Source of the DNA: a virus
Lineage: Duplodnaviria; Caudoviricetes
IMG/VR virus record: IMGVR_UViG_3300030330_003556
Location: 1 to 48,192 of that record
DNA length: 48,192 bases
Reading direction: 5' to 3' (one strand)
Of this stretch, positions 12,451 through 41,075 are shown piece by piece; positions within the stretch are counted from its first letter, which is position 1; each line of letters begins with the position of its first letter. The notes under the pieces were generated by a model. That model ran no database searches, was not told the origin of the DNA, and saw only the letters and a program-made list of their open reading frames with translations. A program made the translations under genes and the position numbers.

Positions 12451-13488
12451 TTATCTTATTATATAGTTAATACCCATTTTAAAATCGTACCACTCTCTGT
12501 TCCAGTACTTGTTGTATTTACCTTCTGCAAAAATACCTAGTTTTTTATTTATTTTTTGACCAAATATTAAACCACCAGAATAATCGTACCATTGTCCATC
12601 AACATAGTTGTGATAACTAAATTCACCACCATCATTGTAATGATAAGGCATTAAATTACCCCAACTATGTACCCAAAAATTTTTATTATAATAATAGTAA
12701 TCAAAACCTAAAATTAAAGAGTTTAATAATCTATTATCTAATTCATTTCTTTTTTTATCAACATAACTTGCTAAAACATTTGGTATTATTATTTGCTCCC
12801 AAACGTCTGAAGATGTAGCTACTAAATCTCCATCAGGATTATAGTATTCTCCTTCATATACGTTAACATTGTAACCTTCTTGTAAGGCTAAATATGTATA
12901 ATGTATGTTACCGTTGTCTAGTTTCCAACTAGCAAGCGGATCATAACCATAAGGCTCTGATAAACGTTGAGCAGCACCAACGTTAAAACTAAAATTACCC
13001 ACAACATATCTATATCTTTGTGAAGTTTCAAAATATTCTATATCTGCAAAACCATCTACTAAATACTCTGCTTTAGCTATCCAGTCGTTAGCTACATATC
13101 TTATAAAGTGATGTTGATCTAAGTACTCTACGCCTTCTTGCCTTTTATAATCTACTTGAAACAAAAACTCTGTACCGTTTCTTTTACCTATTGTAGCAGC
13201 ATCACTATAATTAGACTCGGTACCATCATAAAACGTGTTAGCTCTGTTTTCATAACCAAACCTAGCTATTTTACGTATACCTAATGTTAAGTTATAATCA
13301 TAAGGCGTTTGTATTGTTTCAACACCTAAACCATCTGTAACGCTATAAGTTTCTACGTCTGATATAGAGGTACCACCATTAACAGCAGAATAAAACGTTG
13401 AAAATTTAAACAAATCTTTTATAGTTTGTTGACTGTGTGTCACAGAAGAATATGCAAGTAATAAAAGTGTTAATAATATTTTTTTCAT
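12451..13488 (-). CDS. putative outer-membrane beta-barrel protein with Sec signal peptide
   Basis: MKKILLTLLLLAYSSVTHS signal; many amphipathic aromatic strands; terminal strand DFKMGINYII. Confidence 0.7.
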   Translation of the reverse strand: MKKILLTLLLLAYSSVTHSQQTIKDLFKFSTFYSAVNGGTSISDVETYSVTDGLGVETIQTPYDYNLTLGIRKIARFGYENRANTFYDGTESNYSDAATIGKRNGTEFLFQVDYKRQEGVEYLDQHHFIRYVANDWIAKAEYLVDGFADIEYFETSQRYRYVVGNFSFNVGAAQRLSEPYGYDPLASWKLDNGNIHYTYLALQEGYNVNVYEGEYYNPDGDLVATSSDVWEQIIIPNVLASYVDKKRNELDNRLLNSLILGFDYYYYNKNFWVHSWGNLMPYHYNDGGEFSYHNYVDGQWYDYSGGLIFGQKINKKLGIFAEGKYNKYWNREWYDFKMGINYIIR

Positions 13489-15698
13489 TTTATAAACTTC
13501 TTTTCAACACTACCATCATCATATATAAATAACAATATTGTGTTTTTAGTTATTTTAGCAGGTCTACCTAATAAATCTGTTATAGCAATTAAGTTAGCCA
13601 TACGTTTTGGAACAGGTCCTACCCAAGTTCCTTCGCAGTAATCATATGTTAACTGACATATATTATCCCACTCATTGTCACAGCAATATTCATCTACATC
13701 TATAACCCAAGCATAACAAGGATCGTTTAACCAGTACGGTTCGCCTGGTCCAGTTATACATTCAGCACTATACAAACAACTTTCATTATCAGCTGTGTTT
13801 GCTAGCGGTTCATAGTTGAACGCATCTTGGTCCATACACCCCACAACCACAGGTACACAACTATTATTATCGGTGTTAGCACTTGAATCATAATTGATAG
13901 CAGTACTATCAGTACACCCATAAATAAATGGAATACAACTGAAGTCTTCTGTATTAGCGTTAACTTGGTAGTTGAACATACTCGGATCAGTACAACCATA
14001 AATATAAGGAACGCAAGGATTGATATTGTCTTCAGCATTTGCAAGTGGGTTAAAATTAAACATTGTAGAGTCCATGCATCCATAAACAAACGGTACACAA
14101 CTACCATCATCAGTATTTGCTAAACTATCATAATTGAACATAGTTGGATCAGTGCACCCGTAAACATATGCTATACACGTGTCGGGTGTGTTTGCAAGCG
14201 GATTAAAGTTAAGCGCTAGACTTTCCATACAACCAGTAATAACAGGAACGCAGCCCCCGTTGTCTACGTTAGCCGTAGAATCATAATTAAAAGAAGTTAT
14301 ATCAGTACATCCAAATACAGCTAACGTATTACAACTGTCTTGTATATTAAAATCTGTATAAACTCCGTTAGATGTGTCCATATGGTACTCTAGATACGCA
14401 GGAGACATGCAACCTGGTACGTAATAACAAAGTAAAGGTGTATTTGCTGTGCTATCATAATTAAACGCCATACTATCCATACAACCTTCAACTATTTCAA
14501 CACACTCATTACCACAATAAGTCATACCAACATAAACAAAAAACGGTTGTATAAACGGTGGTTTAACACTTATAATAGTATCACCCATAGGGTTTATTAA
14601 AGTAAACCCACACTCTGGTGCCGTTTGAGAAGCTTGTTGGTTAATAAAAAACTTAGCCTTTACTATTTCAGGCGCTTTTAATTGTAATGTATAAGTCTGA
14701 TTAAAACCAGAAGTCATTACAAATTGTGATGTGTCGTCTTGATAAATTTCTAATCTACTACCAACCCAACCATTACCTGCAAGATCATGCAGTATAAGAG
14801 TGTAATCGCAACTATCTATGTAATCCATAGTATTCGCGGTTGAGTCGTAGTTAAACATTGTACTATCAGTACAACCATATATTTTTAAAGTAGCACAGCT
14901 ACTATCACTTACTGTGGCTGCTGGATTAAATTCAATATAATTGTTGTCCATACAGCCCGGCACTGGTGGTGGTGGTGTACAAGTATCAGAAGTAAATACA
15001 TGTGTGGAATCTGTCCCAAAATTAGGTGTGGTACCAAACACCAAGGTATCTCCACATTGCATTACAAAATACGAGCCATCGTTTCCACCCCACTGGCTTC
15101 CAGCTAAACCGTCTCCGTACGTATCAAATATCGTGAACCTTAAAACACCTGTAGGTAGGCAAACTGGAATATGTTGTGGTTGATAATCAGGAGCGTTTGG
15201 GTATGGGCCTCCTGCTGCTATCAAATTACCCATTGTATCTTTTATTTCCCAACTAGTTTCACTAGTAAATTGATCTAAGTTTATGTTTACCATAGCTGGC
15301 ACACATTGACCAGGCGGTGGAGGTTGCGGCATACATTGCGGTACAACTCTATTATGTATTAATCCTGTAGTAAAAGTACTAACAGGGTAGTTAACTACTG
15401 TATCACCACATATAGTTACATAGTATTCTCCATTTATAATACCGTCACCATAACTATCATATATAACGAAAGATATATTAGTAACACTATCAGACATATA
15501 CAAAGTATCTGTGTGCATAAAATTAGACTGTGTATAATAACCATAATCAACGTAGTCTATAGTATCACCTTGGTAAACAGAGTCGTATAATATCCATCTA
15601 GTTTCACTAGGATACCCATCTGTTTTTATATGTACAACAACTTCTTTCTGCGCAAAAGTTAATATAGGTAGTAAAAGTAATATTAATATTTTTTTCAT
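13485..15698 (-). CDS. secreted Cys-repeat surface protein with putative T9SS-type C-terminal sorting domain
   Basis: Signal MKKILILLLLPILTFAQ (ATG 15698); duplicated TD..SET.W...D.YGDG domains; 11 GC[TM][DES]...C repeats; C-terminus ITDLLGR...LFIYDDGSVEKKFIK. Confidence 0.8.
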   Translation of the reverse strand: MKKILILLLLPILTFAQKEVVVHIKTDGYPSETRWILYDSVYQGDTIDYVDYGYYTQSNFMHTDTLYMSDSVTNISFVIYDSYGDGIINGEYYVTICGDTVVNYPVSTFTTGLIHNRVVPQCMPQPPPPGQCVPAMVNINLDQFTSETSWEIKDTMGNLIAAGGPYPNAPDYQPQHIPVCLPTGVLRFTIFDTYGDGLAGSQWGGNDGSYFVMQCGDTLVFGTTPNFGTDSTHVFTSDTCTPPPPVPGCMDNNYIEFNPAATVSDSSCATLKIYGCTDSTMFNYDSTANTMDYIDSCDYTLILHDLAGNGWVGSRLEIYQDDTSQFVMTSGFNQTYTLQLKAPEIVKAKFFINQQASQTAPECGFTLINPMGDTIISVKPPFIQPFFVYVGMTYCGNECVEIVEGCMDSMAFNYDSTANTPLLCYYVPGCMSPAYLEYHMDTSNGVYTDFNIQDSCNTLAVFGCTDITSFNYDSTANVDNGGCVPVITGCMESLALNFNPLANTPDTCIAYVYGCTDPTMFNYDSLANTDDGSCVPFVYGCMDSTMFNFNPLANAEDNINPCVPYIYGCTDPSMFNYQVNANTEDFSCIPFIYGCTDSTAINYDSSANTDNNSCVPVVVGCMDQDAFNYEPLANTADNESCLYSAECITGPGEPYWLNDPCYAWVIDVDEYCCDNEWDNICQLTYDYCEGTWVGPVPKRMANLIAITDLLGRPAKITKNTILLFIYDDGSVEKKFIK
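13775..14960 (-). repeat. intragenic protein repeats, 11 copies of GC[TM]D....N[YF]...AN.D..SC (2 plus 9)
   Basis: Counted directly in the translation; one copy (GCMSPAYLEY...) is divergent; boundaries approximate. Confidence 0.85.
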
Positions 15699-15699
15699 T

Positions 15700-16071
15700 T
15701 TAAAAATCACTCATTATTATTTCGTCAACTTCTTCTTGCACCTCTTTTCTTGTAGCAGACATAGTAAAACTAAGATCTGCTTGATAACGTTTTACTTCTT
15801 CTCCGTTAAATATTATAATTGTAGGCACTACAACTATGTTATATTTTTTAGCCCAATCACCTTTGTCTATACTAATTCTTTTAACACCACAATCACTAAG
15901 TTTTTCTAACCAATTTACGCTGTTAGCTTTGTTCCAACCAGCATTAAACTCAACTACACACACGTCTGTTTTACAAATATTTTGTGCTTTAACAGTGTTA
16001 GCAAGCATTATAAATAATATTATTAAAAAATAAACTACATATACGCCTTGTGGTGTTTTAGTTTCTTCCAT
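15700..16071 (-). CDS. exported thioredoxin-fold protein lacking CxxC
   Basis: Hydrophobic N-terminal segment ending VKA-Q; VVEFNAGWNKAN in place of F.A.WCxxC; KYNIVVVPTIIIFNGEEV.R. Confidence 0.75.
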   Translation of the reverse strand: MEETKTPQGVYVVYFLIILFIMLANTVKAQNICKTDVCVVEFNAGWNKANSVNWLEKLSDCGVKRISIDKGDWAKKYNIVVVPTIIIFNGEEVKRYQADLSFTMSATRKEVQEEVDEIIMSDF

Positions 16072-16409: not shown

Positions 16410-19400
16410 TTAATCGTGATAATAGCAATAACCACTTTTAGAAGTAGTCATCATTTTACATCTTTGACCGTTAGTTCTTCTACCTTTGCATTGTTTTTGT
16501 TCACCAGATTTACTTTGTTCTACTTCATCGTGTATTGTACAAAAGTTTTTACCTGGTAAAGCTTTGTTTTTACATCTATTACCGCTTCTACTAACAGCAG
16601 CACAAATACCATCTTCTTTACGTAATTTAATGTTTTCTTTAATTTGATCTTTGTTTTTAAACTTAGGTGATTTTACTATTTGTTTAGTTTTTTCGACTTT
16701 TTTGTTTTCAATACCAACGTCCCATCTACTCCAACCTAAGGTTGTGGCTATTCGCTGCCACCAAGCGTTTTCACTATCAAGTCCAGCTCTTAAATTTTGT
16801 ACTTTTCTATAAAGTCTATTAATAGGTACATTTGTAAGACCTTCTACAGTTGTAGTAGTCATGTCCCAAAAAGGATTATCAATATCCCATTTGCTCATGT
16901 ACTCCATAACATCTTTATTCCACTTTTCTATATTTTCACTAGCTGTTAGTTTTCTTACTTTTATGCCAATTGGTGGAGCTATTTGCAAAAGCTCTGGCCA
17001 AGCTGGTGATTTAAACCAAGAGTCACTCTTTGAGTTTTGAACACGCTTTCTAACATAGTTAATCAAAGTAGATGCAACAGCGCCATATAAACCAGAACCT
17101 CTTAATATACTGTCAATAGTACCATATATTACTCTGTCTTTTTTAGTTTTAAAAAACTTTTCATTTTTTTCATTTTCTTCTTCATCGTCTTCAAACAAGG
17201 CGGCAAACAAAGCTTGTTGTAAACCATAAAATATAACACTTTGAACAGCTCCATAATATATAATTCTAGAAATATTAGCGGTATCACTAGCCTCTAAATC
17301 TTTATAACCTTTAGACACTCTTCTATTTATTAAATCAAGATATGATTTTTTAACTATTCTAGCGTACTGTGAAGTTACGTTTTGAAATGCAAAAACCCAT
17401 CTACCAAGTACAGAACGTTGTAATTGAGAAATCATATCAGGTCTAGCAGACTGTTGTGTTTCTTCAGCCACTGTTTGAAAGTCTATAAAAGCTTCTTGTT
17501 CAGCTTTTTTTAACGACATGCCTTCTTCTAAATAAGAGTTTAATCTGTTTCTATAAAAACTAGCACCACCAATAGAAATAGCAAAACTATCACCCAGTTG
17601 TGTAGGTAAAAACCCTAGATCTAATAAGTGTTTTATAGCAGCTCTAACTTTACCAGTTGTTGTTTTAGGTTTAGAAACCTCACTAGCTATTTCACTAGCG
17701 TTGACATCAAACGCAGCACCAGATCTTCTTTGTTTTAAATAATCAGAGTTAAATAACATAGAAAAATCACTCCAAAACTGTTCTTGATCAGCAAATCGAG
17801 CTGCAGCTTTAAATATATTGTTATCACCAAAGTTTAAGAAGTTAACAAAAGACAACTGCTGAAGTATAGCTGATCTAGCGTTGAAGAACATCGTAGCCGC
17901 TACAGATCCATTGACCCAGTCTAACCACCTGTTAACAGCCTTATTATTACTTATAGGTCTGTTATTACCCGTGATAGTAGCCTCTAACACGTCTTCTAAA
18001 GCTAATCTAAAGTCTTTACCGTATATTGCTTCTATTTTATTTAAATTATCATTAGAAAATATAATATCTGCGTTTTCTATAAATTCTGTAAAAAAGAAAG
18101 CTCTACCAACTCTACCAGTAGCATCTGCCAAGTCAGATCTAATATTACCTACTTGCCAGTTTTCACTTGGTGGTACGTAGCCATCTTCCATCATAGAAAC
18201 CTCACCAAGCATATCAGCATAACTTTTTAAACTAGAATATTCGTTTACTATATTTATTAGCGCTCTTTCTTGTTTTGCAGTTAAGTTTGGTATTTCATAA
18301 CCAGCTTTATCAAATAAATAAACTCTAATAGCATCTTCATACGTAAATGTACCATCAGGAGTTACTTCGTTTAATATAGGTCTAACATCTGGTATACTTT
18401 TATTTAATTGTTTATATCCATTTGCTATAGATTGTCTAGCGGCATTTAGTTTTCTATAACCTTCGTTTAAAGGTTTTATTAATGCTTTTTCAAAAAACTT
18501 TCTATGTTGAGTACCTTGCTCACCTTTACCCATAAAATTATAAAGTAAACCTACAAAGTCTTCGTGGTTAGGTGGTACAAAAAATCTATAGTGACCTTTA
18601 TTCATACCATCTTTTGCAGCTTCAGCTGCGCTAAATATATATTTACGATTAATATCAGAAACATCTTCTAGCACACGGTTGAAATAATTATTCATTTTGG
18701 TTTTACTAAAATCAACTCTAGCTTGTTGCACTTTAGATTTAACATCTATTTGTTCTAATATATTTTTTACAGCTTGTACATTTTGCAATGCATCATCAGC
18801 AAAATAAAAATCATTATAACCATCCGCAGCTTTATCTAATACCCACAAAGCTTTAGCATCAGCAGTTGAATTACCAAGACCTGTTATATTTTCTAACGGT
18901 ATATTTAATCCATTAGCTTTTAAAAACTCTTGTATTGCAGGTGCGGACTGAGGTGGTCTAGCTGTTAGTATAAACATGTCTTTAGTACCAAATTTACTAG
19001 CAAGTTTTTTAGCTTTATTTAGTAATGGCGCAGGTTTACCATCTACAACTTTATTAAATTCAGAAAAATCAAACTTATAACCTAGCCCTAATAAATTTTC
19101 GTACGTACTAGCGTATTGCTCTGGTGTTAGAGTTCCTTCAGTTCCATCTAGTCTAGTATATCTAACTAAAGAACTACTTGTAGCAAGTGTATCATCAAAG
19201 TCTAATATAGTAATACCTTTGGTTTTTTTGTTTACTGATTTTGATAGTTGACTTACAGTTTCAAGATTTTTATTATTGTATATTTCAAATATATTTTTAG
19301 GTATAGACTCTATTATTCCCTGTTCTTGATTTTTAACAAAAAAATCAACAAGATCAGCATTGTAAGTGTACCTTGTAAGTCCACCTTTAAACTTCAAGCC

Positions 19401-22400
19401 AGCTTTATTTAGTATAACATCTATTTCTTTAGGTAACACATGTACAGTTGCTAAATCAAAATATTGCTGTAATTCTTTTTTATTTTGCTTACTAGGGTTT
19501 TTAATAGTGTCTTGTATCTTATCAACCATGTCAGACACGGTTATCTCGTGTTCTAACACTAAGTCTTTAGATGTTAAGTTAGATTTTTTATTCATTTTTA
19601 CACCTAACTTATATATTTTTCTTATAGTACCTCTTTGATCAAGAGACATTAAATCTACCATAGCTAATTTCTCAGGCTTACTTAAGTCAGAGTCTAATAT
19701 ACTTTGTAAATATGTTTTAGCGTCATTAGCTTGTCTGTCTACTAAATTGACTAACTCTTGATTATTTCTAGCATTGTTTTTAATATTCTCTATGTTTTCA
19801 TACATAGGCACTGGTATAAATTTACCGTCTTGATTATAAACAATTATCTCACCATCTTTAACCTCTTGTAATTTATAGTTTGGATTAACAAACTTATCAC
19901 CAAACAAAGGTTTTAGTACTCTTTCTATAAATATTCTATTAGTAGTAAGACCATCAATCATACCACTTCTAGTTGATCTACCTATGTTTTTTAAGTATTC
20001 ATTTATTATTCTAACTTTTTCAGTATCATTTACGCCTTCGGTTAACCGTTGTAAATGTTTTTTAGAAACTTCAAATCCGATCCTTCTAACTTGAGGCATC
20101 GTTGTGTTTTTAATAAATTTGACAAAGTTTTCTAAACTACTAAAGTCTGGCGATAGTGATTCTACTGTGGGTGGTAGCTTTTGTACTATAATATCATATA
20201 CTACTCTTGATGGTAATTCGTTTTCAAAAGCAACTTGCATCTCTTGTAGTATATTATTGTTATACATATACAAATCTGATTCTTCAACATTTTCATTGTT
20301 TTGTATACGTTTTTCTATATCTTGTATTTTACCTTGTAAAGCAGCTAAAGGTTTTTTACGATATTGTAATTCTGTTAGTTGTAGTTGAGAGTTATAGCTT
20401 GAAGAAAATTGAACATCACCATCTTGCAACTCACCATTTATAGTTACTTTACCATCAGGTACAAAACTTCCAGGAGTGCTATTTTTTACAACACTTACTT
20501 TTTTACCTTGTAAAGGAAAATATCTTTCGTTAGACCTTACTAAATAATCGAAATTTTTTCTTATAAATGGATCTGTAATAGCATCAGGGTTTTTAGCCTG
20601 TTCAAACATATCTTGATTAACCGTACCTTCTAGTTCTACATAAGATTTACCTGGGCTTTCTTTAACAAGTACTCTTTTCCATTTAGTAATATTTTCTAAA
20701 CGAAGTTGATCATTACCTACTCCTATAGTCTCAGTCTTTGCTTTTCCTTTATATTTTTTGTATGGCGACCTTACTTCTTCTTTACGTATTGCGCCTCCAT
20801 CTTTATATATAGTAGTAGTTTCAGAGGTGTAATGTACACTCTCTTTTCTTTCAAACTGCTTACCATCTTTAAAACCGTTTTTTGTAGTTGTTATCTCTAC
20901 TATGTCGCCGTCAAGGTTTTTCTTAGTATAAGTACCTGTTTTTGAATCACCAACTTGTTTTTCTGTATGTACTACAGTACTTTTGTTTTCATCTACTTGT
21001 ATGACTTCTCTAAAACCGTCACCAACTTTTTTACCTTTTACAATAATAGCTTTTGTAGGTTTATCCATTCTGTCCCACCACTGCATATTGTTACCATCTC
21101 TAAAAGAAACTAAGTTACCGTTATGAAAAGCTATTTTAAATCCATTATTGTTTTGGTTGTAGCTTTTCCAGTTACCAAAAGCTTGTTTTAACTCGTCGAA
21201 ATTTTTATCTTTTGGTGGCTTTGCCACTACAGCAAACTGTTGGATTACTGATCCATCTGCTTGTTTGTAATCAAAAGTTTCTATTTCAACAGTTTCATAT
21301 CTACCAGTTTGTTCAAATGTATTTTTCTCAGTTTTAGCTTCTTGACGAGTGTCAACCATTTTAATGTCTGGAACAACAGTTTCTTGTTCTCTAGCGCATA
21401 AACACCAAGGATTTGCTTTTTCACCAAAATGTGTGTCAACTACTTTTCTAACATCTAACTGTCCTTGTTTAGAGTTTTCTACGTCGTAAACTACAACACC
21501 ATCGCTATACTCTGTTTTATTAGTAAAAGTTTCAAGATCATCTGGATTAGTTCTTTTAACTTTCTTTTTAACTACGTTTTCTTCTATTAAAACATTAGGA
21601 TTTTTGTAAGAGAACGGATCTATCTTTTTTATACCCGCTACTCTTTCAGCTTCTATAACTTTGTAACCGTCTTCAGGTAGTATTAAATAACCATTAGCCA
21701 TGTAATGCATAGCTAGTTTTTCGTACTTAGCTTTTTTGTTATTTGGTATGTCCTTACCATCTACAAAGTCAAATACAGACTGTACGGCGTTTTTTCTTTG
21801 ATCTTCTGTAAGATCAGGTCTTTTCTTTTCTAATCTTTTTTCGTATTGATCTCTATGGCTTTTAGAAAACTTTATTTCTAAATAAACATTAGTATTTTCA
21901 CCGTTTTCTATAGCGTTGTTTATGTCTTCACTAGCTTTGTTTTTAGAAAACTGAACATCAACTTCTCTACTAATTTTAGATGATAAATCTACAATATCAA
22001 GCTGCGCGTCAAACTCATTGGTTAATAGTTTGTCAACATCAGGTTCTTGTCTTACTTCCATTAAAGCATCAAATATAAAAGCTTTTGACATGTGCTTTGA
22101 TAAACCATCTTTTCTAGTACCTTTTAAACCAGATCTTAATCCAGTAACAGGATTTATAAGTGGAACATCAAAAAACCCTACAAACTGATCTTCAGTTGGC
22201 ATTACTTTTTTGTACAAGTTTACAGCCTGCCCTTTGTCTATTGATTTTAAAGCATCTTTAGGTAATAAACCTTTATCAACAGCATCTTGCACCTCTTGTT
22301 TTGAAGTTAATCTTTTTACAAATTTAGTAAATACTTTTTCACCATCTGGTACATTTCTTTCTATTTGAACAAAATCTGATGTAAATATAGCTTCAACTAT

Positions 22401-25346
22401 AGACTCTCTATGTTTTTTTAAATAATTAACATATTCTTTTGTACCTAAACTATTTTTTACTATTTTAAATAACTCTGTATATCTTCCTGATGTTAAACCT
22501 TTTTCTCCAGCGTACTCACCAGCAATCATTTTAACTATAGCGGCAGCTCTATCGTTTTTATTTTTTATATCTTTGGTTTTCTGATATGCTAATATTAAAC
22601 TTTGTCTAGCGGAATCTTTAACTTTATTGTAAATATTACTACCATCTTGTATACCAACGTCTTGTCTAAGTTTACTTTTTCTTACTTTTTTCTTTTTATT
22701 TTTCTGAGCCTCTCTTTTAGCAACAGCTTGAGGTGACATGTCCATTGTTTCTAGATCTACCATAGTTTGATCTATATCTGCTTCAACTTGTACTTTTATA
22801 TCACCTTCTTTTGTTGTTTGTCCAACTTCAACTGTAGGTACTGTTATCTGACCTTCTGTTAAAGAATTAAAAGCTTGTTTAGCTTTATTACCTATTTGTG
22901 GATTTATCCAACCAAAAAGCCCGTTTGGATTTTTTCTTTCTGGTTTATAATTTTTTATATGTGGTAGTAGCTCTGCATAAGTTGTATCTAAAAAAGTTTT
23001 ATCATCAATACCTTCATGTGGCTTTGCTAGTATAAGACCGTCTAATAAACCTTGTTTTTGTATTAACTCAGCAACGTCTTGACCATACACTTCCCAATAA
23101 GCATTACCACCCAAATCTTCAAAACTTATAGTATCACCACCTGTTTTTTCATTGTCAGTAAATTCTCTACCATATTCATTTACTAGATCTTGTTTTTGAG
23201 CATCAGTTAAATCTCTAGTTCTAGATAATTGTACTTCACCTGGACTAGCTAAACCAACGTCTATCATATCAACAAACTGGTTTCTAAGTTTACCTTTTTT
23301 TCTATCAGAAACGTATTCTTTTAAAAAGTTTCTAACACCATCTGCTGTTTCAAAACTAATATCTTTATAACCACTTTTACCTCCGTTTATTATTTTTTCA
23401 AAAAAGTTTTTTAATTTAGTTATAACGCTATCTTGTAGATTACCTTTTAATTGAGCGTCACCAAACGCTGTTATATATTCTTCAGCATACTCAACAAAAG
23501 CTTTCTCACTACCATCTTTGTTATACCTATAATTATCATCTATTCTTTGCTGCACAACAGAACGTTCTTTACTAGTTAAGCTATCAACAAAATCTCTTAA
23601 TACTTGTTCGCCTTCTTTTGTCAAAGTAGTTTCAACAGTATCGCCTGTGACTTTATCTGTAACAGTTCTTGTTTCATTGCCTCTTAATGAAGACTTTACG
23701 ACAGCGTGTAAAACCTCGTGAGAACCAGTGGTAACCGCGTTATTTTCTGCTGCTACAACTTCATTTATTAAAATGTTTTTACCAATAATTAAACCATCAA
23801 CATATTGTAAATCCTGCGCACTGTAGTTGTTACCAGTTAAAGAGTTAATTTGTTTTCTAAAATCAGCTTGGTTTTTAATTACATTTATACTTAAACCTTT
23901 TGTTCTACTTAATGGCTCTTCAAAAGTTCTAATATCATCATTAAGCATTTTTTTGTTAGCATCAACTCTAATATCATTAAGTATTTTATTTTGAGCCGCT
24001 ATATCTTCATTAAGTTTTATAGTAGAAATATCAAATTGTTCTTGAGTTATTATATTATTTTTTAATTGATTTTCTAAACCTTTTAACTGATTTCTTAACT
24101 CATTTTTTGTTTCGTAAGTTTGAATTATATCGTTACCTTGTTGTTCTGTTATGTAAGTTGATTTCTTTCTAACAGATTTAATATAATTTTTTAGTTCTTT
24201 TTCTTGTTTTTTAATTTCTTTATCAATAAAACCTTTAGTATCCGGAGTAAAAGCTTTTAATTTTTCTCTTTGTAAACCACCTATATTTTGAATATATTCG
24301 TTTATTATAATATTATCATTATCATCTCTAAAAGATTTATTAATTTGATTACCAGCACCTCCAACAGCCGTACCACCAACAAACCCCATAGCAAACGATT
24401 CAAACGCATCTTGAGTACCTAAAGATTTTACGCCTTTTAATAAAGCAGTATCGTAATCATCTCCAACCGCTAAAGACTTGTTTATTTTATCTATACCGTG
24501 TTGAAAATATTCTGTAACACCTTCTTTAGATCCAGTAGCTACATAACCAGCTACTTTTTTCATACCAGAAGTACGGGCATTTCTTAAAAAAGCATTAGTA
24601 ATACCTTTAAAACCAGCATACTCAAGCGCTGTAGCTGCAACACCTAAAGTTGTAGGAGTAATTAAATCATCTTCACCGTTTTCGTACATTTTACGCATTG
24701 CGGTTTCAAAATCATCGTCTGGATAAAGCGTTTTTGCTCTTTCAGCGTTAAACTCTGTGTACATTGGAGACATTACTTGAAAAGGTAAGCTATATCCACC
24801 AGTAAAATAAGCGGGAACTACAGTTAGCATTGTATTAACAATAGCATCCGTCACACCTGTGGCAACATCAACAACATCACCTTCTTTAATACCACCAACA
24901 ATACCTTCTCCGCTATATAAATACTGTGTTTTTTCTTTTAATTTTTCTAGTTTTAGCTGCTGTTCTATTTGGTATTCGTTAAAAACATCTCCAGCAACAT
25001 TATCATCAGCAAACTCATTAACATCACCACCACTAGCTATAAAGTCTACAATTTTACCACCTGTTGGGTCTATTTTATTTATTATATTACCTACGTATAC
25101 AGGGGCACTTCTAACAAAAGTTTCACCTGTAACTTCAGCTTTTTCAAAAACATTGTCTACTTGCACTAAAAACCTATCAAACGCACCTAGCTTGTTAACC
25201 TCTTCTTCGTATCTTTCTTGAGAAACTACTTTGGCTTTGTGTCTAAGTTTTTGATATTCTTTTTCACCTATTTTTTGAAGTTCTTCTTTACTGTAATTAC
25301 CAGACTCTACATAAGGTCGCATTATTTCGATTAATTCTTCCTCCAT
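16410..25346 (-). CDS. giant polyvalent internal virion/ejection protein (zincin, sigma-like, HNH-like, HAD, C-terminal Zn fingers)
   Basis: 2978 aa, last of the ejection-protein block; HEVLH; DFDDT/ILTAR/FADD HAD motifs; two C-x9-C-x10-C-x2-H repeats. Confidence 0.75.
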   Translation of the reverse strand: MEEELIEIMRPYVESGNYSKEELQKIGEKEYQKLRHKAKVVSQERYEEEVNKLGAFDRFLVQVDNVFEKAEVTGETFVRSAPVYVGNIINKIDPTGGKIVDFIASGGDVNEFADDNVAGDVFNEYQIEQQLKLEKLKEKTQYLYSGEGIVGGIKEGDVVDVATGVTDAIVNTMLTVVPAYFTGGYSLPFQVMSPMYTEFNAERAKTLYPDDDFETAMRKMYENGEDDLITPTTLGVAATALEYAGFKGITNAFLRNARTSGMKKVAGYVATGSKEGVTEYFQHGIDKINKSLAVGDDYDTALLKGVKSLGTQDAFESFAMGFVGGTAVGGAGNQINKSFRDDNDNIIINEYIQNIGGLQREKLKAFTPDTKGFIDKEIKKQEKELKNYIKSVRKKSTYITEQQGNDIIQTYETKNELRNQLKGLENQLKNNIITQEQFDISTIKLNEDIAAQNKILNDIRVDANKKMLNDDIRTFEEPLSRTKGLSINVIKNQADFRKQINSLTGNNYSAQDLQYVDGLIIGKNILINEVVAAENNAVTTGSHEVLHAVVKSSLRGNETRTVTDKVTGDTVETTLTKEGEQVLRDFVDSLTSKERSVVQQRIDDNYRYNKDGSEKAFVEYAEEYITAFGDAQLKGNLQDSVITKLKNFFEKIINGGKSGYKDISFETADGVRNFLKEYVSDRKKGKLRNQFVDMIDVGLASPGEVQLSRTRDLTDAQKQDLVNEYGREFTDNEKTGGDTISFEDLGGNAYWEVYGQDVAELIQKQGLLDGLILAKPHEGIDDKTFLDTTYAELLPHIKNYKPERKNPNGLFGWINPQIGNKAKQAFNSLTEGQITVPTVEVGQTTKEGDIKVQVEADIDQTMVDLETMDMSPQAVAKREAQKNKKKKVRKSKLRQDVGIQDGSNIYNKVKDSARQSLILAYQKTKDIKNKNDRAAAIVKMIAGEYAGEKGLTSGRYTELFKIVKNSLGTKEYVNYLKKHRESIVEAIFTSDFVQIERNVPDGEKVFTKFVKRLTSKQEVQDAVDKGLLPKDALKSIDKGQAVNLYKKVMPTEDQFVGFFDVPLINPVTGLRSGLKGTRKDGLSKHMSKAFIFDALMEVRQEPDVDKLLTNEFDAQLDIVDLSSKISREVDVQFSKNKASEDINNAIENGENTNVYLEIKFSKSHRDQYEKRLEKKRPDLTEDQRKNAVQSVFDFVDGKDIPNNKKAKYEKLAMHYMANGYLILPEDGYKVIEAERVAGIKKIDPFSYKNPNVLIEENVVKKKVKRTNPDDLETFTNKTEYSDGVVVYDVENSKQGQLDVRKVVDTHFGEKANPWCLCAREQETVVPDIKMVDTRQEAKTEKNTFEQTGRYETVEIETFDYKQADGSVIQQFAVVAKPPKDKNFDELKQAFGNWKSYNQNNNGFKIAFHNGNLVSFRDGNNMQWWDRMDKPTKAIIVKGKKVGDGFREVIQVDENKSTVVHTEKQVGDSKTGTYTKKNLDGDIVEITTTKNGFKDGKQFERKESVHYTSETTTIYKDGGAIRKEEVRSPYKKYKGKAKTETIGVGNDQLRLENITKWKRVLVKESPGKSYVELEGTVNQDMFEQAKNPDAITDPFIRKNFDYLVRSNERYFPLQGKKVSVVKNSTPGSFVPDGKVTINGELQDGDVQFSSSYNSQLQLTELQYRKKPLAALQGKIQDIEKRIQNNENVEESDLYMYNNNILQEMQVAFENELPSRVVYDIIVQKLPPTVESLSPDFSSLENFVKFIKNTTMPQVRRIGFEVSKKHLQRLTEGVNDTEKVRIINEYLKNIGRSTRSGMIDGLTTNRIFIERVLKPLFGDKFVNPNYKLQEVKDGEIIVYNQDGKFIPVPMYENIENIKNNARNNQELVNLVDRQANDAKTYLQSILDSDLSKPEKLAMVDLMSLDQRGTIRKIYKLGVKMNKKSNLTSKDLVLEHEITVSDMVDKIQDTIKNPSKQNKKELQQYFDLATVHVLPKEIDVILNKAGLKFKGGLTRYTYNADLVDFFVKNQEQGIIESIPKNIFEIYNNKNLETVSQLSKSVNKKTKGITILDFDDTLATSSSLVRYTRLDGTEGTLTPEQYASTYENLLGLGYKFDFSEFNKVVDGKPAPLLNKAKKLASKFGTKDMFILTARPPQSAPAIQEFLKANGLNIPLENITGLGNSTADAKALWVLDKAADGYNDFYFADDALQNVQAVKNILEQIDVKSKVQQARVDFSKTKMNNYFNRVLEDVSDINRKYIFSAAEAAKDGMNKGHYRFFVPPNHEDFVGLLYNFMGKGEQGTQHRKFFEKALIKPLNEGYRKLNAARQSIANGYKQLNKSIPDVRPILNEVTPDGTFTYEDAIRVYLFDKAGYEIPNLTAKQERALINIVNEYSSLKSYADMLGEVSMMEDGYVPPSENWQVGNIRSDLADATGRVGRAFFFTEFIENADIIFSNDNLNKIEAIYGKDFRLALEDVLEATITGNNRPISNNKAVNRWLDWVNGSVAATMFFNARSAILQQLSFVNFLNFGDNNIFKAAARFADQEQFWSDFSMLFNSDYLKQRRSGAAFDVNASEIASEVSKPKTTTGKVRAAIKHLLDLGFLPTQLGDSFAISIGGASFYRNRLNSYLEEGMSLKKAEQEAFIDFQTVAEETQQSARPDMISQLQRSVLGRWVFAFQNVTSQYARIVKKSYLDLINRRVSKGYKDLEASDTANISRIIYYGAVQSVIFYGLQQALFAALFEDDEEENEKNEKFFKTKKDRVIYGTIDSILRGSGLYGAVASTLINYVRKRVQNSKSDSWFKSPAWPELLQIAPPIGIKVRKLTASENIEKWNKDVMEYMSKWDIDNPFWDMTTTTVEGLTNVPINRLYRKVQNLRAGLDSENAWWQRIATTLGWSRWDVGIENKKVEKTKQIVKSPKFKNKDQIKENIKLRKEDGICAAVSRSGNRCKNKALPGKNFCTIHDEVEQSKSGEQKQCKGRRTNGQRCKMMTTSKSGYCYYHD

Positions 25347-39845: not shown

Positions 39846-41075
39846 TTAATTTCTATTTTTAATTCTAAACTTGTAAACAGAATCATCATTATCAAGGGCT
39901 CTTACTTTAAAACCACTAGTGTTCAAGTTTTCAACATGAGACTGTCTTGGATCCATACTAACATTTTTTGACTTGGCAATGCTTTCTTTTATAGCATCGG
40001 CTCTCCCTTGTTCATAAAAATGATTAGCAACTCGATCCGGGTTCATAGCTGTAAAAAGTCCTTTGTGGTAACCAGCAGCATCTTTCATGCTATTATCTTT
40101 ATTAAGAAACTTTCCTATAAAGTTATTAATATCACTTTGAGTGTTTTTTACCTTTTCAACGTCTTTAATGTTAAATCTAAATTTTTTCTCACCGACATTA
40201 TATTCAAAACCTTTGAACTTGTCGTTAAAAACTTTATCAGATTTTAATTTAAAAGCTTGTTGCATTTTTTCATTTGACTCTGATTGCTCGTTGTATCTGT
40301 TGAAAAAATCAATAGCCTTCTGTTGTTCTGGAGTCAGTTTACTTCCAGCTTTAATTTCTTCATAATATTTGGATTTTACACTTTCCAAGTGTTGCTTTGC
40401 AGAAGCAACTTGCTCCTTCATAGCTAATTTTTTTCTTTTTATTTCTTTTTCTGTGTTTTCTTCTTCGTCATAAGCGAACGTATCTTCCATTAAAAAATCT
40501 ATTTCTTCACTAGAAAGATGTGGTTTTGTTTGCTTGTAATACTCGTGTAACAAAGTTTGATTATCCATTTCTGAATAATCTTTATTTATAGAAACATAAT
40601 CTTCTAAACTACCACCAGTTTCATTTATAAAGTCTACAAGTTTTTGTATATTTTCTGGTAGTGGCTCTCCAGTTTCTTCAGCTTTAGTAATAGCGTCAAG
40701 CGCTTCTGTTTCTAATTCTTCAACCTCTTCATTAACTACTTCTTCTACAACTGGATCTTCTTGTGTTTTTTCTTCCTGTTGTACTTCTTCTTGTTCTTGT
40801 GTGGCTGAGGCGTCTTCAACGAGTTCAACCACTCCTGATTCGTCAGTGTTATCTTCTGTAGTTTCTGCTGCAACTTCTTCTTTAGTTTCATTTTCTGGTT
40901 TTTCACGTAGATCAACTTTAGTTACAGTTTCTGTTTCTTCTACTTTAGATTCTTTGCTTAAATCTACTTTAGCAACTGTGTCTTCTGTTTTTGCTAATGA
41001 TTTTTTTGGTTTTGTTTTTACTTTTATTTTACCAGTTTCGTTATCTACCACTGGTTTTTCTTTTTGTTTTGCCAT
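39846..41075 (-). CDS. capsid scaffolding protein
   Basis: Very acidic Glu-rich N-half and helical C-half; between portal and capsid. Confidence 0.75.
   Translation of the reverse strand: MAKQKEKPVVDNETGKIKVKTKPKKSLAKTEDTVAKVDLSKESKVEETETVTKVDLREKPENETKEEVAAETTEDNTDESGVVELVEDASATQEQEEVQQEEKTQEDPVVEEVVNEEVEELETEALDAITKAEETGEPLPENIQKLVDFINETGGSLEDYVSINKDYSEMDNQTLLHEYYKQTKPHLSSEEIDFLMEDTFAYDEEENTEKEIKRKKLAMKEQVASAKQHLESVKSKYYEEIKAGSKLTPEQQKAIDFFNRYNEQSESNEKMQQAFKLKSDKVFNDKFKGFEYNVGEKKFRFNIKDVEKVKNTQSDINNFIGKFLNKDNSMKDAAGYHKGLFTAMNPDRVANHFYEQGRADAIKESIAKSKNVSMDPRQSHVENLNTSGFKVRALDNDDSVYKFRIKNRN

Follow-up and report, generated by a model that had tools for sequence, protein, structure and literature searches.

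A repeated junction motif in the giant zincin-bearing protein of an uncultured marine phage, a predicted self-cleaving polyvalent ejection protein

The window analysed here is a whole stretch of 48,192 nucleotides; it comes from an uncultured marine phage whose virus record is linear and about 80% complete. According to Pfam and PHROG it encodes a terminase, a portal, structural proteins and a crAss-muzzle-like tail protein, and genes for an ERF annealing protein and for a protein resembling exonuclease VIII are also present. Its capsid protein is about 40-42% and its portal 27-41% identical to those of Elemovirus, Callevirus, Pachyviridae and Maribacter phage Panino; Calle and Gundel are described as podoviral (PMC8776804). 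On the minus strand, at 16410-25346, lies a giant ORF of 2,978 aa, the end gene of a small, medium and giant trio downstream of the tail genes, a position that matches that of the giant genes of these cultured phages. Elemovirus gp18, Callevirus Calle3_1, Pachyviridae phi13:2 gp127 and Panino CDS0069 are alike in this syntenic position and in being homologous, in their N-terminal part, to members of the family of the window protein (E 4e-55 for elemo gp18 vs the member P0050). Since the giant gene is syntenic with those of distant N-terminal homologs, two of which (elemo gp18 and Calle3_1) carry the annotation "structural protein", we infer a virion location, and the giant protein is likely to be a cargo, or ejection protein, delivered into a Flavobacteriia host. 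One relative (L052:2357-13000) has an N-terminal glucosaminidase domain (Pfam E 2.3e-11), which is in keeping with an ejection protein that crosses the peptidoglycan. By tblastn, the giants of cultured Flavobacteriia podoviruses gave no match to the window protein itself, and GenBank phages gave none to the giant protein, to its C-terminal part or to the ART-like module of a relative. In a Kyte-Doolittle scan no 19-residue window of the giant protein exceeded 1.5. Directly downstream of the giant gene, 13485-15710 on the minus strand encodes a protein of 741 aa with a signal-peptide-like N-terminus, many GC[MT]D...[FY]NY[DN] repeats and a C-terminus that we take to resemble a Bacteroidota type IX secretion sorting domain. 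Pfam and PHROG gave no match for this protein, which may be a host-like surface protein, and similar signal-peptide-like starts are found in the ORFs after the giant gene of two relatives (L014 and L019).

The giant protein contains a zincin-like metallopeptidase domain at about aa 471-700 (23247-23936, minus strand), supported by an AF2 model (pTM 0.73), fold matches and conserved ligands. Its HEVLH motif (aa 543-547, 23706-23720) provides two predicted zinc ligands and the predicted general base, and the downstream EE pair is E622-E623, the second of which (23478-23480) is the predicted third zinc ligand. Conservation of HExxH among homologs was one of the checks proposed in an earlier note on this DNA, and both HExxH and the third ligand are kept: E623 is invariant in 43/43 sequences and is found in 153/153 relatives of a pooled alignment that was anchored on the HExxH motif. 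C-terminal patterns retrieved 111 full-length relatives, of which 109 have HExxH and two HDxxH, and the catalytic Glu is retained in 151/153 zincins overall. The best fold match of the model is the lethal-factor catalytic domain (Z 6.2, rmsd 4.2, 145 aligned residues), with Pro-Pro endopeptidases as further matches (Z 5.1 and 5.0). The six top VIA matches all have the zincin fold, of lethal-factor or PPEP-like type, and are of middling quality (Z 6.2-5.0, below 8; rmsd 3.9-4.8; 135-151 residues). Foldseek returned no match to the model at E <= 0.001, and the match to bacillolysin is weak (E 0.18). The two exceptions to HExxH, L014:4490-12646 and L019:4931-12940, have HHDxxH zincins, with Asp for the catalytic Glu, and retain repeated junction motifs (FSE in the first, VESK/MESK in the second). 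A Glu-to-Asp change usually cripples zincins, and these two proteins are natural controls for a cleavage model.

Downstream of HEVLH, the earlier note had listed six copies of a motif, x[QKD][FL]S[KRS], and all of them are in frame within the same ORF and on its minus strand: VQLSR (aa 705, 23220-23234), VQFSK (aa 1131, 21942-21956), IKFSK (aa 1158, 21861-21875), VQFSS (aa 1645, 20400-20414), SQLSK (aa 2032, 19239-19253) and VDFSK (aa 2211, 18702-18716). The listed copies are real and the count was short, as the pattern matches the protein nine times, also at VDLSS (aa 1119), PDFSS (aa 1733) and SDLSK (aa 1886). Conservation separates the two sets. At the listed sites [FY]S[KR] is found in 23/44 covering homologs for aa 1131, 14/19 for aa 1158, 9/12 for aa 1645, 42/124 for aa 2032 and 103/149 for aa 2211, the best-conserved site; at the additional sites it is found in 0/44, 0/12 and 0/16, respectively. 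Five of the six listed sites are then conserved and aa 705 is a degenerate sixth, with the strict pattern in 4/81 homologs and a looser one in 30/81. Enrichment was confirmed both against shuffled sequence (nine matches vs a shuffled mean of 0.84, with 0/5,000 shuffles reaching nine) and against other genes, as 21 other ORFs of the window hold one match in 10,223 aa; the pattern had been fitted to its own matches, and the independent support comes from the family data. That sole match elsewhere, VDLSK, is at aa 38 of the product of 39846-41075 (minus strand), a gene between portal and capsid and a probable scaffold, and may be due to chance. Regarding structural context, in a model of aa ~1641-2044 both border motifs fall in low-confidence ends and the unconserved SDLSK lies between two confident helices; in the AF2 zincin model VQLSR forms a short strand with pLDDT of about 65-70.

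The motif copies delimit a series of modules in which biochemically unrelated domains (zincin, sigma-2-like and HAD-like, plus a P-loop kinase in relatives) are joined in one ORF. After the zincin and the aa 705 site, aa 707-1132 (21951-23228, minus strand, as are all the modules) opens with a sigma-70 region-2-like domain (~22857-23174), a label already given in the earlier note and borne out here by a profile match to the sigma factor 8b3z (E 1.5e-4) and by three related subfamilies. The aa 1131 site is followed by a 27-aa linker, and the aa 1158 site starts a mobile module, the variable cassette aa 1160-1646 (20409-21869, NPWCLC), which is without family match and is found at other positions in relatives. 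The next variable cassette, aa 1647-2033 (19248-20408), has a conserved LEHE and contains two of the unconserved pattern matches (aa 1733 and 1886). It had been described as EH-nuclease-like, which family and fold searches left unconfirmed: Foldseek with its model gave nothing at E <= 0.001 and VIA gave helical-hairpin matches only, and profile comparisons relate it to other cassette families with an EH motif. The aa 2032 and aa 2211 sites enclose a HAD-like module of 179 aa (18711-19247), near-fixed in the family (144/151 relatives). Its assignment holds through the motifs DFDDT (19188-19202), LTAR and FADD, with a Pfam HAD match below cut-off. A P-loop kinase (AAA_33/Zeta) adjoins or sits inside this module in six relatives (P0031, P0044, L053, L061, L116 and L157), a pairing that recalls polynucleotide kinase-phosphatases. 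The protein ends in a conserved, motif-depleted C-terminal scaffold (aa 2213-2880) with a Cys/His-rich tail (16413-18710 together), defined by family profiles and motif counts. The tail itself (16413-16619, minus strand) has a weak DUF5763 match and is present in 51/218 family sequences searched. PDB sequence searches with the NPWC and HAD modules gave nothing credible, ESM Atlas searches returned unnamed clusters or no usable match, and an NCBIfam search was uninformative. The sigma-2-like module may act on host RNA polymerase, and the HAD module, with or without the kinase, may have a role in nucleotide or nucleic-acid-end processing.

The family was assembled from 53 proteins found through the zincin region and 165 loci found mostly through C-terminal patterns; the latter gave 144 non-redundant ORFs, 111 of them full-length, and the pooled set contains 153 non-redundant proteins. 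We estimate that about 1,600 IMG/VR stretches carry a member. Its layout is a variable N-terminus, the zincin, the sigma-region-2-like module, at least one variable cassette, the HAD module and the C-terminal scaffold. Splitting the proteins at the motifs gave 478 segments in 115 clusters, a number that is an upper bound because degenerate sites merge or split segments, and among 70 representative segments only the kinase modules gave Pfam matches above cut-off. In about 150 relatives the motif has the consensus [VIL]-[KQ]-[FY]-S-[KR]-[ST], and no 4-mer recurs inside single proteins as often as KFSK (18/57). Chance frequency, which the earlier note had named as a test, does not account for it: between zincin and scaffold, 151 proteins contain 266 copies of [KQR][FY]S[KR] vs 18.7 expected, a 14-fold excess. 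Upstream of the zincin the same pattern is at chance level (9 vs 10.5 expected), and the C-terminal scaffold is depleted of it (8 vs 18.2 expected; 1 vs 8.8 in another count). In 11/151 relatives the cassette region is without any [FY]S[KR]. The motif is about 100-fold denser in the giant proteins (104 copies in 349,735 aa) than in 764 neighbouring ORFs (one copy in 340,265 aa).

Conserved copies stand at module borders, and it is at the motif that modules are gained, lost and moved, as had been anticipated. With the motifs masked, a motif is no more than 10 aa away from 96/305 breakpoint clusters of 56 proteins (null mean 11.6, maximum 24 in 2,000 draws), figures in which homologous sites are not independent events and for which the pattern was widened after the data had been inspected. 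Two relatives that are 66-81% identical to the window protein (L002 and L003) are without aa ~1136-1645, the block that runs from the aa 1131 site to the aa 1645 site, and their joint falls exactly on the motif, with the left half of the first site fused to the sequence that follows the second. The same deletion joint, 20396 to 21941, is found on one contig each of runs X3 and X5 (two of four compared). The two window copies involved (D-V-Q-F-S) share 14/15 nt, a microhomology that is enough to channel recombination, and the deletion form joins there. The NPWC module begins with FS[KR] in 17/17 homologs, be it after the linker, after another cassette (P0030, P0031) or after the HAD module (L053, L065, L157); a further search yielded 34 shorter matches, and all 15 whose start was located by the anchor pattern have FS[KR] as well. 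Tandem copies of the motif, 10-27 aa apart, also occur in the family. The earlier note had spoken of interchangeable host-takeover effectors. In this sense, the middle cassettes do swap and they alone do so; the HAD module is almost always present, and few cassettes have an assigned function.

The motif is constrained at the peptide level and not at the DNA level. Codon identity between motif copies is 241/389 (0.62) within genes vs 0.64 between genes, and in 29/41 multi-site genes both TCN and AGY codons are used for the motif Ser. An excess of AAG codons at the motif was considered as a DNA signal and rejected, given that a context control explains the bias. The motif also changes in concert within a lineage. 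The five FSET copies of L040 use three different codons for Ser, and the FSE variant is found in L014 too; KFKR occurs four times in L049, TLKS three times in L064 and L077, and ESM/SESM in L051. The residue at -1 agrees between sites of one protein in 116/232 pairs vs a null of 68. The concerted change at several borders, together with this agreement, suggests that a reader with sequence specificity co-evolves with the sites.

Whether the zincin may be that reader could be approached by covariation, since there is next to no correlation between the distances of zincin and scaffold (r 0.03). The last junction is about 1,600 aa away from the zincin, and its -1 residue, scored in the 121 of 144 proteins with a recognisable core (23 were left out), requires 29 changes on the zincin tree, 34 on the scaffold tree, 36 on the HAD tree, 35 on the pre-zincin tree and 36 on the post-zincin tree (null ~40). 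For 30 ordinary columns of the HAD module and 30 of the scaffold, the zincin tree gives the poorest fit, and the flanking positions +5 to +7 fit the scaffold tree best. Partial Mantel correlations were 0.24 for zincin, 0.18 for scaffold and 0.11 for HAD; Mantel tests are liberal, and the trees were built with FastTree from divergent short domains. In addition, L014 has FSE in common with its nearest zincin (L139) and not with its nearest HAD or scaffold neighbours, which have KFSKS. Other positions are less telling: +2 has no tree preference (21/21/22 changes), for +3 the zincin and the pre-zincin region come out equal (48 vs 48), and the split of KFSK vs other fits the scaffold tree (36) better than the zincin tree (40). 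Taken as a whole, the covariation gives modest support to the zincin as the probable reader.

Starting from the modular layout, the motif at the borders, its peptide-level constraint and concerted lineage change, and the conserved zincin ligands, we propose, with a probability of roughly 0.6, that the giant is a phage-type polyvalent ejection protein that is packaged and cut at the motifs by its own zincin. The protein would travel in the virion and enter a Flavobacteriia host by ejection, and its zincin would recognise the junction motif. Zincins with a preference for a hydrophobic P1' residue are known, and by analogy the cut would fall before the aromatic or Leu residue (K/Q|F-S-K). Were all six sites cut, inside the head or once the protein has been ejected, the products would measure about 79, 48, 3, 56, 45, 20 and 88 kDa. 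The motif also provides a short DNA microhomology, and a crossover inside it leaves it intact, which would explain why cassettes swap there. The wider proposal, about evenly poised in our judgement, is that the family displays a cleavage code of polyvalent-protein metallopeptidases (MPTases). Each zincin would read its own motif (FSK, FSE, FKR or LKS), which would double as crossover point; an inserted cassette would be released automatically from a plug-and-play effector array, and protease and distant sites would co-evolve in a heavily recombining gene. Among cultured kin, the Panino and phi13:2 giants are without HExxH and also without a repeated motif of the junction kind. As a counter-case, a clear repeated motif is missing from elemo gp18 and the MW202828 giant, although both carry HExxH. 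The syntenic giants L169:14852-25936 (elemo gp18) and L168:242-11821 combine one or two HExxH with the lack of such a clear repeat, and these two may use another code or none. The HDxxH proteins L014 and L019, which still keep repeated motifs, are a further counter-case, in this instance to self-cleavage.

These HDxxH relatives fit a second explanation, which we regard as unlikely: the motif would be the cleavage site of another protease, either a phage maturation protease encoded outside the window or one of the host, and the zincin would act on something in the host, for instance the envelope or a defence protein. About 80% of the genome is covered by the record, and the missing part may encode another protease. 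In addition, the N4 virion RNA polymerase (vRNAP) has a HExxH zincin-like domain, yet is described as packaged unprocessed (PMC5512222), and a preprint on phi24B suggests, as a proposal, peptidoglycan as the target of such a domain. On the other hand, the motif is nearly absent from other genes (the single copy in 340,265 aa and the single match in the window), unlike the codes of head proteases, and PHROG and Pfam found no head protease among 27 window ORFs and turned up an M15 endolysin instead. A host enzyme would have to change in step with each of the FSE, FKR and LKS variants, and, of the zincin and the upstream gene, it is the zincin that the -1 residue follows more closely (15 vs 6 discordant cases).

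A non-proteolytic signal, which we hold to be quite improbable, would also fit the constraint on the peptide, the variants that change in concert and the HDxxH cases. In this reading the cleft of the zincin, a chaperone or the portal would bind the motif to control the packaging, unfolding or threading of an uncut beads-on-a-string protein, or the motif would be a site of Ser modification; the N4 vRNAP has been described as ejected as linked subdomains (PMC13434306). Against such a signal, the catalytic Glu is kept in all but two of the zincins, the scaffold is depleted of the motif as expected were internal sites harmful, and the closely spaced tandem copies suit redundant cut sites. Finally, that the motif is a mere recombination scar or DNA crossover site of shufflon or integron kind with no role in the protein is very improbable, and strongly disfavoured as sole explanation by the codon data: the near-identity of the two window copies at the deletion joint and the annealing and exonuclease proteins of the phage speak for it, and microhomology may still channel swaps, but synonymous codons are no more alike within than between genes, both Ser codon families are used, the apparent codon bias is accounted for by context, none of the 20 largest repeat families listed links the six sites, and beyond the core the similarity hardly rises above background. 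A shufflon- or integron-type cassette system was likewise rejected, there being no conserved DNA crossover site independent of coding.

The preferred reading, a polyvalent protein cut by its own zincin, can be compared with known systems. In RNA virus polyproteins and in the head-protease codes of T4 and phiKZ, the positions at which a precursor is cleaved are likewise flagged by the recurrence of a short peptide. Here, by contrast, a zincin within the protein is the candidate protease, other genes hardly ever carry the motif, and genomes exchange modules with one another. The phage-type polyvalent proteins with a zincin-like MPTase, for which autoproteolytic domain release was proposed by Iyer et al. 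2017 (PMC5512222), are closer: the window protein is likewise a giant phage protein of disparate domains, with a lethal-factor-like zincin that has HExxH and a downstream Glu, and one of its cassettes is shared with an LPD3 and ART-PolyVal protein (P0085). In Pfam it has no LPD, ART-PolyVal or PBECR match; one relative (L142) has a weak ART-PolyVal match, below cut-off. The text available from PMC5512222 names no cleavage or junction motif, and "cleavage site" appears in it only within a reference. The border motif, the swaps at the motif and the covariation of motif and zincin seen in the window family go beyond that text, and our literature search, of incomplete coverage and partly based on excerpts, retrieved no junction motif in print for MPTase polyvalent proteins; it also found no proteomics of elemo phages.

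Regarding ejection proteins, N4 gp50 and the gp65-gp67 proteins of the crAss-like phage phi14:2 resemble the window protein in being encoded by a giant cargo gene in a podovirus ejection cluster and in a zincin-like domain. The N4 vRNAP has been studied as full-length recombinant protein and gp50 is reported as a single chain (PMC13434306), and a preprint suggests that fused crAss-like polyproteins are cleaved (bioRxiv 10.1101/2020.03.07.982082). The window protein shows no RNA polymerase signature: unlike the crAss-like virion RNA polymerase, it is without DFDxD, its DFDDT being the HAD motif, and DFDxD is present somewhere in only 6/153 relatives. It also differs from the four cultured giants named at the outset, in which the profiles of the HAD module and of the C-terminal scaffold find no match and FS[KR] is not repeated (for Calle3_1, in the part covered).

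Self-processing by the MPTase was proposed in 2017, as far as the available text goes without predicted sites, and the N4 case points the opposite way (PMC5512222). In this sense, the family described here makes the question directly testable, as it offers exact candidate sites, predicted fragment sizes, natural specificity variants and Glu-to-Asp controls. Furthermore, the motif divides giant hypothetical proteins into well-bounded modules, mostly without family match, that may serve the phage as early effectors against marine Bacteroidota.
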